From positions 5,233-69,232 of the forward strand of contig JBHGXW010000045.1 in the NCBI GenBank assembly GCA_041920465.1: 64,000 nucleotides of DNA, given 5' to 3'. Below are positions 12,337-48,624 of the stretch, in pieces. The translations under genes were made by a program, and so were the position numbers. This DNA comes from Paenibacillaceae bacterium. Lineage in GTDB: Bacteria > Bacillota > Bacilli > Brevibacillales > Brevibacillaceae. Under the pieces are notes generated by a model, which saw only the letters and a program-made list of their open reading frames with translations, ran no database searches and was not told the origin of the DNA. Numbering within the stretch: the first letter of the stretch is position 1; each line of letters begins with the position of its first letter.

Positions 12337-12414
12337 TTAAATATTCGCAAAATCCGCCGAAGTCAATTCTTGCAGTTTTTCAAAGTCGATCACACGTCTG
12401 CCATTTTCTATTCG
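12337..12414 (-). pseudogene. possible 3' remnant of an XRE/Cro HTH regulator
   Basis: Minus strand reads RIENGRRVIDFEKLQELTSADFANI*, resembling the XRE S-R-I-E-N-G motif; 5' part abuts the repeat at 12414. Confidence 0.35.
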
Positions 12415-12480
12415 AGAGAAGCCGGACTTGAATACAACTTCGCAAGCTGTAACGGGAGGCACGAAAGGACAACGTTTTTC
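12414..12480. repeat. 67-bp repeat, right end of the MITE-like element at 48253-48540
   Basis: gagagaagccggacttga...cgcaagctgtaacgg(g)aggcacgaaaggacaacg..tttttc aligns to 48474-48540 with 5 substitutions and 2 one-base indels (manual count). Confidence 0.85.
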
Positions 12481-12504: not shown

Positions 12505-12546
12505 GGGGGCCCCGCCGGGCGCAACGATAGTTATAGCCCGGTGGGT
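12505..12546 (+). repeat. REP-like hairpin R2
   Basis: ggggg-c-cccgccgggc-gcaacgatagttata-gcccggtggg-t, followed by tttc. Confidence 0.8.
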
Positions 12547-12656
12547 TTTCTTATTTGGCCCTGATTCCCCATGGGAAGACAATAGTTTGAAACTCTTGCA
12601 TTTTCGGTTAAAATGAGGAATACTGTATGATAGCCAAGTTATTGTTGTGAAAGGAC

Positions 12657-23329: not shown

Positions 23330-23383
23330 GTGCGTTTATATAACTCTGTTTCGGTAGACGATTCAGGGCGGAAAGAGGTGGAA
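23330..23383 (+). promoter_or_regulatory. probable L31 (rpmE) leader RNA
   Basis: ataactctgtttc...gattcagggcgg immediately 5' of rpmE resembles the conserved Firmicutes rpmE leader (recalled, not searched). Confidence 0.5.
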
Positions 23384-47382: not shown

Positions 47383-48126
47383 ATGCAAACAATTCGAGAC
47401 GTCCGGAAAACGGCGAACGATGATACAATTATACCGAATGGATTTACTGCTAATGGATGGGGAAGTATCCTTTCACATGAAATGAAGGTTCTTTTTCAAG
47501 GGCTCTGCTATGTTGTATCCAAATTTGATACCAAAGCAGAAATGAATAAGGCACTCGACGGCATCCGAGGCTTGAGAGGCACGTTTGCTCCGCTTGAAAA
47601 AAGCTTATTCAAGTCAGAGGAATCTTATGAAGGGTACCGTCAGCACATCGAGAAACATCGGGAATTTTTGGAACGGTCCGGATATACATATCCTTCTTCC
47701 CGCGATGAAGCAATTGAGTTGTTCGTAAAGTGGGGATTAGTTCTTGATCAAGGTGATGCTTGGGACGTACCGATCACACCATTCCCGGATGTACAAGATA
47801 TTTTCACGTTGACAGACGTTGAAAAAATGGCGTTAAACACAATTAAACTGGAAGCGCTGGTTCACCCGATCTTCAGCAAATTGATTCTTGCTCTGCATGA
47901 AAAGGATGAAGAAACGTTCCATCTCTCCAAGGCAGACCTGAAGGAAATGTTACAAGTAAATGATTCTCTTCTTCTTGAGGTGCTGATCAAACTGGTGCCT
48001 TACCTGAAACAGCCGATCGACAATATTCAAGAGATTCCGGAAGACGAAAAAATGGAGATCAGTGTTGTGTGGGAACGTATTTATGAGGACTTTTTAGGCG
48101 ATAAAAATCCTCAAGCTGTCCAATAA
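47383..48126 (+). CDS. hypothetical protein (possibly DUF6042)
   Basis: 247-aa ORF with RBS (aaggagag) and its own terminator; family name from memory only. Confidence 0.8.
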   Translation: MQTIRDVRKTANDDTIIPNGFTANGWGSILSHEMKVLFQGLCYVVSKFDTKAEMNKALDGIRGLRGTFAPLEKSLFKSEESYEGYRQHIEKHREFLERSGYTYPSSRDEAIELFVKWGLVLDQGDAWDVPITPFPDVQDIFTLTDVEKMALNTIKLEALVHPIFSKLILALHEKDEETFHLSKADLKEMLQVNDSLLLEVLIKLVPYLKQPIDNIQEIPEDEKMEISVVWERIYEDFLGDKNPQAVQ

Positions 48127-48308
48127 TTCCATATCAATATCAATGTAAGCATGAGGGAGGACTCTTGTCCTTCTTTTTTTGTGCTATAAAAGAAAGTTTA
48201 ATCGCTTTAAATTAAAGTGGTTAAACTTTCTTTCCAATCGCGCAGCCAGTGGGAAAAACGATTGTCCATTTCGCAGCGACTTTTACAGCGCAAGCCCAGG
48301 CGCTCGCT

Positions 48309-48348
48309 GGGGCCCCGCTCGGCTTAGCGTAGCTTAAGCCGGGTGGGC
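48309..48348 (+). repeat. REP-like hairpin R8
   Basis: gggg-c-cccgctcggc-ttagcgtagcttaa-gccgggtggg-c. Confidence 0.8.
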
Positions 48349-48368
48349 AAAAATCGTCAGGAGAAAAA

Positions 48369-48408
48369 GGGTCCCGACCGGCGCCACGTAAGTTATGGCC
48401 GGGTGGGT
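48369..48408 (+). repeat. REP-like hairpin R9
   Basis: gggt-cccgaccggc-gccacgtaagttatg-gccgggtggg-t. Confidence 0.8.
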
Positions 48409-48624
48409 AAAAAAAGTGGTCAAGCAGCAAAACGAAGGACAAGGCTACGGTTTTGACCACTTCCTGACGATGAGAGAGAAGCCGGACTTGATCGCAGCTG
48501 CGCAAGCTGTAACGGAGGCACGAAAGGACAACGATTTTTCTTGTTGTGCAAATCTTGCCGAATCGCGCCAATAAATTTATCTAAAAAAATAGATTTTTGT
48601 TATAAAAAAATTTTAAAGAATAAA

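Follow-up and report, generated by a model that had tools for sequence, protein, structure and literature searches.

The window, the whole stretch of 64,000 nucleotides analyzed here, belongs to a 3.70-Mb draft Brevibacillus genome (76 contigs, 47% G+C), many contigs of which end in repeats of the host type described below. In the spacer between a DUF6042 gene and a gene for a 757-aa secreted protein, a sequence-only reading had marked positions 48253 to 48540 as a 288-bp block. BLAST gave 56 matches to this block in the source genome, 9 of them approximately full length at 89 to 93% identity, so the pattern is not due to chance and the block is a real repeat. Its left boundary did not hold, however. 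Around 30 left flanks are conserved for about 70 nt beyond it, and the full unit in the window therefore runs from approximately 48184 to 48543, roughly 360 bp. It starts directly after the T-run of the terminator of the DUF6042 gene (48153-48176). On the right, conservation ends after ...GTTTTTCTTA or ...GGACAACGTTTTTCTTA in the 43 right ends compared. We refer to the larger repeat as the host element. The parts of the locus, all on the plus strand, are as follows.

48153-48183 (+): intrinsic terminator, stem-loop and T-run, of the upstream DUF6042 gene (47383-48126), found by a terminator scan
48184-48252 (+): AT-rich head, with leader CTATAAAAG, hairpin arms 48189-48210 and 48212-48233 (inverted repeat I2, 91% complementary), then TTTCCAATCGCGCAGCCAGTGG
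48253-48301 (+): left arm of the closing stem, GAAAAACGATTGTCC...TTACAGCGCAAGCCCAGGC, pairing with 48497-48540 and showing compensatory changes between species
48302-48352 (+): site-A segment with REP R8, whose GGGGCCCC start lies at 48309; defined by filled against REP-less copies
48353-48369 (+): initial part of the left arm of the inner stem, ATCGTCAGGA, and the ancestral A-rich bulge GAAAAAG, which every REP-less copy and the sister species G001 have
48370-48416 (+): REP R9 insertion of 47 nt, with arms 48373-48382 and 48398-48407, loop GCCACGTAAGTTATG and an A-run tail; defined by filled against empty paralogues
48417-48423 (+): remainder of the left arm of the inner stem, which together with the ambiguous AG at 48415-48416 reads AGTGGTCAA; inverted repeat I9
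48424-48452 (+): apical loop of the inner hairpin
48453-48471 (+): uninterrupted right arm of the inner stem, TTGACCACTTCCTGACGAT, the best single family marker (35 true genome copies)
48472-48543 (+): right side of the host, with the closing-stem right arm GCTGTAACGGAGGCACGAAAGGACAACGATTTTTC and a terminal TTG (consensus TTA), from 43 right ends

Rereading of the sequence bore out the split palindrome. The right arm is the exact reverse complement of two left pieces, ATCGTCAGGA (48353-48362) and AGTGGTCAA (48415-48423), and the GC-rich hairpin R9 lies between them. Listed as inverted repeats I9 and I10, ATCGTCAGGA and AAGTGGTCAA (48414-48423) both show 100% complementarity to TTGACCACTTCCTGACGAT. 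R9 is matched by a covariance model at C19:53601-53640, and AAAAAG flanks it on both sides, leaving its exact junction ambiguous by 6 nt. The second GC-rich hairpin, R8, had correctly been placed within the block; it lies 60 nt upstream of R9 (direct repeat D3), with arms at 48314-48323 and 48338-48347. The terminal inverted repeats are imperfect and reach a shared TTACAGC, as described: GAAAAACGATTGTCC...TTACAGC (from 48253) faces GCTGTAA...GGACAACGATTTTTC (to 48540), and GAAAAACGATTGTCC... pairs with ...GGACAACGTTTTTC over approximately 40 nt.

Three further features were noted elsewhere in the window. Positions 12414 to 12479 are a solo right-end fragment of the host element, equivalent to positions 222 to 286 of the 288-nt block. 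A standalone REP unit, AAGAATTTATAAGTT-REP-TTTTCTTA, follows 27 nt later at 12506 to 12547. An L31-Firmicutes ribosomal protein leader (RF03156, 38.8 bits) at 23344 to 23377 is the sole Rfam match at gathering score in the window.

The block had been called MITE-like. A classical MITE would be bound at its terminal inverted repeats by a DDE transposase acting in trans, of the IS630, IS5 or IS1595 type, and the short, noncoding, multicopy unit with imperfect terminal inverted repeats of 15 to 40 nt fits that description, as do minimal copies made up of the two ends (C32:20013, C38:41686 and C38:42960). The rest of the label fails. With the copy ends defined at approximately 48184 and after GTTTTTCTTA, no target-site duplication was evident at the window copy, at about 30 left ends or at 43 right ends, which agrees with the earlier observation at this locus. 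The conserved unit extends asymmetrically past the left repeat. A partner sharing the termini had been proposed as a check, and the source genome yielded only chance end pairs; no pair spaced 0.3 to 6 kb apart had extended similarity, and neither the genome nor plasmid, phage and metagenome collections held a longer element with matching ends. The absolute replication-strand orientation reported below also is unexpected for double-stranded cut-and-paste transposition. A DDE transposase with target duplication is probably the wrong mechanism, and we regard the classical MITE explanation as very improbable. The description of a larger, nonautonomous host stands, given about 35 arm-bearing copies and no transposase gene with matching ends found in the genome.

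REP states and the polarity of insertion

The host repeat, short and noncoding, occurs at approximately 67 places in the source genome, and about 35 copies in the 3.7 Mb bear the right arm. REP states were scored among 35 copies anchored on this arm. A search for copies without the inserted segment had been suggested, and it was productive: seven copies carried neither REP, four carried only the site-A REP and at least two carried only R9. Both REPs were present in 9 to 10 copies, and a single "fused" REP was present in 4. Copies without REPs read ATCGTCAGGAGAAAAAGTGGTCAA, in the fuller context ...CCCAGGCTTGTCGTAATCGTCAGGAGAAAAAGTGGTCAAGCAGCG.... The site-A segment of the window copy stands in place of 8 nt, TTGTCGTA, of the REP-less copies, and across copies the site-A REP replaces 6 to 8 nt.

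Polarity is provided by a sister species, Brevibacillus sp. SYSU BS000544 (G001), one of two further genomes in the same GTDB genus. All 11 of its aligned copies lack REPs and keep the A-rich bulge GGGAAAAAAGTGG, and we therefore take the REP-less state to be ancestral. The split of the left arm had been given as a 52-bp segment. A REP does separate the two pieces, but the ancestral arm was already broken by 5 nt, since the G001 copies retain the bulge, and R9 is thus a 47-nt addition inside a preexisting 5-nt A bulge. G001 has a syntenic spacer between the DUF6042 gene and the gene for the 757-aa secreted protein, and this spacer lacks the element; in a second sister species (G002), the spacer below the DUF6042 gene also is without it. 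Together, the copies without R9, the REP-less sister species and the empty orthologous site support the proposed nested insertion, although some REP-less copies may be secondary losses. In the anatomy given above and in the secondary gain of the REPs we have high confidence.

The ancestral REP-less core was found in 2 of 61 genomes of the family, those of the source strain and G001. A scan of genome contigs with the 19-nt arm returned only Brevibacillus sp. SYSU BS000544 and chance matches, and neither plasmid nor phage collections contained a match to the element. In a metagenome scan with the 21-nt right end, the one match was a chance match inside a coding region. An exact-protein look-up for empty alleles in close strains returned Logan contigs that carry the upstream gene and stop within the repeat, and no record for the downstream protein. 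These comparisons show that the element is a modular, young, noncoding repeat of the source Brevibacillus and one sister species.

The route by which REPs reached individual copies is less clear-cut than their late arrival. Across copies, the REPs at site A fall into at least four subtypes whose 5' junctions differ, which points to several events. On a backbone tree built from REP-free columns, REP states are interspersed, which indicates that loss or conversion also occurs; within the source genome, the tree leaves gain, precise loss and conversion inseparable. Some of this pattern would be accounted for if REPs had not transposed within this genome at all, with R9 entering a single time and then being spread or removed by slippage at AAAAAG and by gene conversion or recombination. 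The same R9 junctions and nearly the same R9 sequence recur in about 17 copies, AAAAAG is present on both R9 flanks, and REP-less copies fall in two separate backbone clades beside REP-bearing ones. The fused copies on C10, C33 and at C58:42944 look like REP-by-REP recombinants, and the left end of C54:35300, a standalone-type REP flank, also looks recombinant. We nevertheless consider this explanation unlikely. The REP-less outgroup requires at least one true gain, the subtypes and differing 5' junctions at site A need several events, and nesting recurs independently as REP in REP in G004, a genome of another genus, and as Bacillaceae-1 modules within REP loops (2 of 24 copies of another repeat family).

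Two structural variants of the host were also seen. At C38:42945-43050, an extreme deletion derivative retains the head, approximately 20 nt of left-arm sequence and, fused directly to these, the final 14 nt of the right arm, which indicates that internal deletions across the hairpin are tolerated. In a subfamily, a tandem 16-nt unit, ACGTTTCAGTCCCCCG, is present in 2 to 3 copies at one fixed point of the right end (GGAGGCA|); this unit occurs at 22 places, including C1:13028, C10:597, C16:23556 and C14:47941.

The REP family, nesting and the AT-rich head

The hairpin of approximately 50 bp had been proposed to move as a unit, and its distribution shows a genome-wide family separate from the host. 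The REPs are GC-rich hairpins of 40 to 47 nt, and R8 and R9 share the same orientation. A covariance model identified 96 REP matches in the source genome (approximately 100 with the hidden Markov and covariance models combined); about 44 stand alone between genes, and another repeat family, with 24 copies, has a REP as a fixed component. Across the REP stem, 94% of cells are paired, with double changes at 5 pairs, and 23 of 31 sequences have a G.U at pair 8:36 (pair 4). The leader and tail that belong to standalone REP units are missing from nested REPs.

Nesting extends inward from the REP as well. In 2 of the 24 copies of the fixed-REP family, and in several standalone REPs, the REP loop contains a module of 60 to 110 nt with GUCCU-loop hairpins that matches the Rfam Bacillaceae-1 motif (RF01690). 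In G004, REPs lie inside the loops of other REPs. With REPs in the host, modules in REPs and REPs in REPs, nesting reaches at least three levels.

The source genome contains approximately 25 Bacillaceae-1 matches, 5 of which are above gathering score. Examples lie at C38:179-243, C69:26796-26860, C76:60104-60168 and C30:126425-126486, and none was seen in the window. Most copies are modules of 60 to 110 nt nested in REP hairpin loops, and about 11 near-identical copies are reversed inside standalone REPs; the best two matches sit between tRNA genes (C63:28614 and C31:319). G004 has at least 108 REP matches and looks like the site of a recent burst, with dozens of near-identical copies in which a 50-nt REP lies in the loop of another REP, beside un-nested outer REPs, at loci L093 to L106. 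The REP model was trained on the source genome, and counts in other genera are lower bounds.

The 70-nt extension to the left of the block is itself a repeated module. This AT-rich head consists of a leader, CTATAWAAG, a 20-bp AT-rich hairpin and then TTTCCATTTGCGCAGCCAGTGGA. It is kept in most host copies, and its stem shows compensatory changes between copies. Heads occur at about 100 places in the genome, and 94 of 102 lie on the G-rich strand. At least three repeat bodies follow the head: the core found in the window (about 32 times), a GAAAAACTTCGTCC...GGGACGAAGTCTTTTCTTA body (about 20 times) and the body with the fixed REP (about 25 times). All head-bearing bodies have a closing stem of the GAAAAAC..GTCC / GGAC..GTTTTTC type. 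Two of them end in TTTTCTTA and the third in GGACAGTTTTTC, and standalone REP units have the same kind of ending. Almost all host copies are preceded by a terminator-type hairpin and T-run, and the left flanks are terminator T-runs that often are TTTTCTTA-like or consist of a T-run and a G. Such TTTTCTTA-like left flanks, combined with TTTTCTTA right ends, explain tandem arrays.

The head was observed without any of the listed bodies in G002. A 72-nt module, CTATATAAGACTTTCATGCCGACTTCTTCGGCACC...TTTTCAGGGTA, stands between leader and head hairpin at 13 places (for example, C27:5560-5631 and C12:32140-32210), in 13 of 13 cases on the G-rich strand. A repeat ending in GTGAAGACTCCC at contig ends was considered as an rRNA-operon flank or a group II intron, and it proved to be a third AT-headed repeat family.

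Host fold and replication strand

The consensus fold of the REP-less core in both species is one long hairpin of 55 pairs, 12 of which show compensatory changes. Approximately 58 G.U cells in about 19 columns were counted, compared with 3 A.C cells, and this excess identifies the plus strand as the folding strand. A replication-linked C-to-T bias contributes to the G.T excess. The plus strand folds at -148 kcal/mol (z = -5.6). Both REP sites fall in unpaired columns of the consensus, site A being an unpaired internal loop.

Orientation was scored relative to the G-rich strand, which is the leading strand and has the sequence of the lagging-strand template. The plus strand of the host lay on it in all 35 copies of the source genome and in 11 of 13 copies of G001, as did 38 of 38 left arms and 32 of 36 REPs sampled in G004. 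By crude longest-ORF calls, 74% of the genes of the source genome are on the G-rich strand, and the chance of 35 of 35 at this rate is 0.74^35 = 2.6e-5. The upstream gene was co-oriented in 24 of 28 copies, also by crude longest-ORF calls; replication therefore is the better predictor of orientation. Strand-locked copies of this kind point to spread as single-stranded DNA.

The same fold could instead belong to a structured RNA. The unit would be transcribed, with a start at a -10-like CTATAWAAG within the head or through read-through of the upstream gene, and would act as a small RNA or as a 3'-UTR stabilizer or terminator, and its leading-strand placement would reflect selection for codirectional transcription rather than a transposition mechanism. 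The stability of the plus-strand fold, the compensatory changes and the G.U excess on that strand are all compatible with this notion; strand lock and G.U excess together would also be expected of an RNA codirectional with replication. The upstream gene is mostly co-oriented, the head has a hairpin followed by TTTCTTTCC and so resembles a terminator, and Rfam lists the nested Bacillaceae-1 module as an RNA motif. On the other side, replication strand outperforms the upstream gene as a predictor, and no sigma-70-type promoter was found. The host unit has no match in Rfam 15, either at gathering score in the window or at E<=0.1 in seven loci; only the nested Bacillaceae-1 module of other copies does. 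The repeat tolerates internal additions of 47 to 110 nt, truncated fragments and deletions down to approximately 50 nt, and in this it does not resemble a functional RNA gene. Neither the sister species G002 nor the orthologous site contains the element. An RNA function thus appears improbable to us as the explanation of the family.

Candidate enzymes and relation to known systems

The mobilizing enzyme had been predicted to lie outside the window, and both Y1 transposase genes of the source genome indeed are on other contigs. One encodes a RAYT-like protein (C69:53384-53926), and the other encodes an IS200-type TnpA (C16:58925-59392). The RAYT-like protein has an HUH motif and a YIHRNP motif, and its best match is NF047646, the family of REP-associated tyrosine transposases, at 71 bits, below the NCBIfam cutoff of 80. 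Its gene was found in 2 of 61 genomes, the two richest in REPs, and is absent from the other 59 at E<=1e-10. In both of these genomes, which represent two genera, it is a single-copy gene directly downstream of a comM/yifB-like Mg-chelatase gene (G004:C5:2722-3183 in the second). No REP was detected within 1.5 kb of the RAYT-like gene by the REP model at E<=1 in the source genome (G000) and G004.

The IS200 TnpA lineage (93 to 97% identity) is more widespread, being present in 10 of 61 genomes and 6 genera, including all three of the REP-richest genomes; it is found also in seven genomes with 0 to 1 REPs. All 10 readable left ends of this lineage lie directly after a terminator hairpin and T-run (the copy of the source genome and loci L107 to L117), and the resident IS200 has the same orientation as the host copies. 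Its left-end leader, TGTATAAGAAAA, stands before its hairpin and resembles the head leader CTATATAAGAAAG. The 9-nt leader TATAAGAAA and the type of target are common to the repeats and the IS200 left end, but the hairpins and the right terminus differ, the IS200 right end being TTATGACT and that of the repeats being TTTTCTTA. The REP model found no REP within 1.5 kb of the IS200. The IS200 right end abuts a full REP unit in G004 and a 14-nt REP tail, GGTGGGTTTTCTTA, in the source genome. Comparison of the loci ties neither candidate enzyme to the elements. An origin from TnpB or its omega RNA was rejected: the source genome has no TnpB, and the core is unlike any TnpA/TnpB locus of G000, G001 and G004.

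The explanation that we favor, and hold to be reasonably probable overall, is that of a modular hairpin repeat to which REPs were added later and whose parts are mobilized as single strands. The ancestral form is approximately 200 nt, with a plus strand folding into one long imperfect hairpin; its closing stem is what appears as terminal inverted repeats, and its inner stem, with the 5-nt A bulge, what appears as a split palindrome. Upstream terminator T-run, AT-rich hairpin head and core are the usual order. R8 was gained later in the internal loop (site A) and R9 in the A bulge (site B), both co-oriented and in unpaired regions of the left side. The modules would spread at the replication fork as single-stranded DNA on the lagging-strand template, landing beside T-runs or in exposed loops with no target duplication, and precise loss would be possible. 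A Y1/HUH enzyme would be the likely agent, the candidates being the resident IS200-type TnpA and the RAYT-like protein. Spread by a single-strand Y1 mechanism is the tentative part of this account; we think it plausible and stop short of calling it probable. Single-strand Y1 mobilization has been proposed for REPs (PMC3333891), and for IS200/IS605 elements both excision and insertion are known to use the lagging-strand template, IS608 and ISDra2 being the established cases (PMC5027513).

A broader proposal is that one Y1/HUH system in the Brevibacillaceae drives AT-headed elements, REPs and Bacillaceae-1 hairpins alike, onto T-runs or exposed loops and always on the lagging-strand template. 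This is speculative, and we would sooner doubt it than expect it. If true, it would be the first REPIN/PATE-like system described in Firmicutes, and the orphan Bacillaceae-1 "RNA motif" would at least partly be a DNA hairpin that moves. Understanding of REP-type repeats and their enzymes comes almost solely from proteobacteria, and the present case is from a spore-forming Firmicute. It offers a clean, testable system: two sites have both filled and empty paralogues, an outgroup sets the polarity and three nesting levels lie in unpaired parts of the host. The absolute strand orientation and two candidate Y1 enzymes make it possible to test how small hairpins move, whether by single-strand cut-and-paste, copying at the fork or recombination. 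The repeats are linked to intrinsic terminators and could alter 3'-end formation of many genes. The family matters also for genome assembly, given the many draft contigs that end in repeats.

Several described repeats resemble this element in part. Very small nested dispersed repeats reportedly were described in cyanobacteria by Elhai and coworkers in 2008, and there, as here, small hairpin-type units lie inside other repeats and one another; phylum and sequences differ, and the units described here are co-oriented and confined to unpaired loops and bulges of the host. Correia elements, ERIC/IRU and RUP are noncoding intergenic repeats of 100 to 400 bp with terminal inverted repeats, often near gene ends, and ERIC has size variants that result from internal insertions or deletions. 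The present element is likewise intergenic, folds into a long hairpin and varies in size by internal indels, but it lacks a target duplication, a search of the genome gave no autonomous partner and its replication-strand orientation is strict. The third-level insert in some REP loops matches the Bacillaceae-1 model. That motif is described as a noncoding RNA near rRNA operons, whereas here it is mostly nested in REPs, in either orientation relative to the REP.

REPINs belong to the same comparison as REPs, BIMEs and RAYTs. Like the REP/BIME and TnpA-REP (RAYT) systems of E. coli and Pseudomonas, the REPs described here are GC-rich imperfect palindromes of 30 to 47 nt that are extragenic and number tens to hundreds. 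They have a conserved mismatch or wobble in the stem (here the G.T at pair 4), their hairpins join other short motifs to form BIME-like mosaics, and REP abundance tracks the RAYT-like gene in that the two richest of 61 genomes carry it. A stem mismatch is required for TnpA-REP binding in E. coli, and RAYT genes are "always flanked" by REPs (PMC3333891). Unlike these systems, ours has no GTAG or CGTC tag, the 5' end being GGGGCCCC, and R8 and R9, spaced 60 nt apart, form a direct repeat rather than an inverted doublet. The RAYT-like gene has no nearby REP, its product scores below the family cutoff and its host is a Firmicute. We do not file the system as RAYT/REPIN because flanking REPs, the feature that was tested, were absent. 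A limited literature search found no papers joining RAYT, REPIN and Firmicutes.

PATEs, palindrome-associated transposable elements, are nonautonomous derivatives of IS200/IS605 (PMC5027513, PMC10055086 and PMC7290912). The long closing stem of the host, which PATEs do not need, sets it apart from them, as does the lack of a TnpB in the source genome and of any likeness to the TnpA/TnpB loci of relatives; from the resident IS200 it differs in its hairpins and right terminus. It shares with the resident IS200 the terminator T-run site and a similar left-end leader. With IS200/IS605 elements and PATEs in general, it shares the absence of target duplication, hairpin-bearing ends, insertion beside a short specific sequence and an active strand strongly biased to the lagging-strand template. 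Taken together, the host/REP system works most like RAYT/REPIN systems and the PATEs of IS200/IS605.
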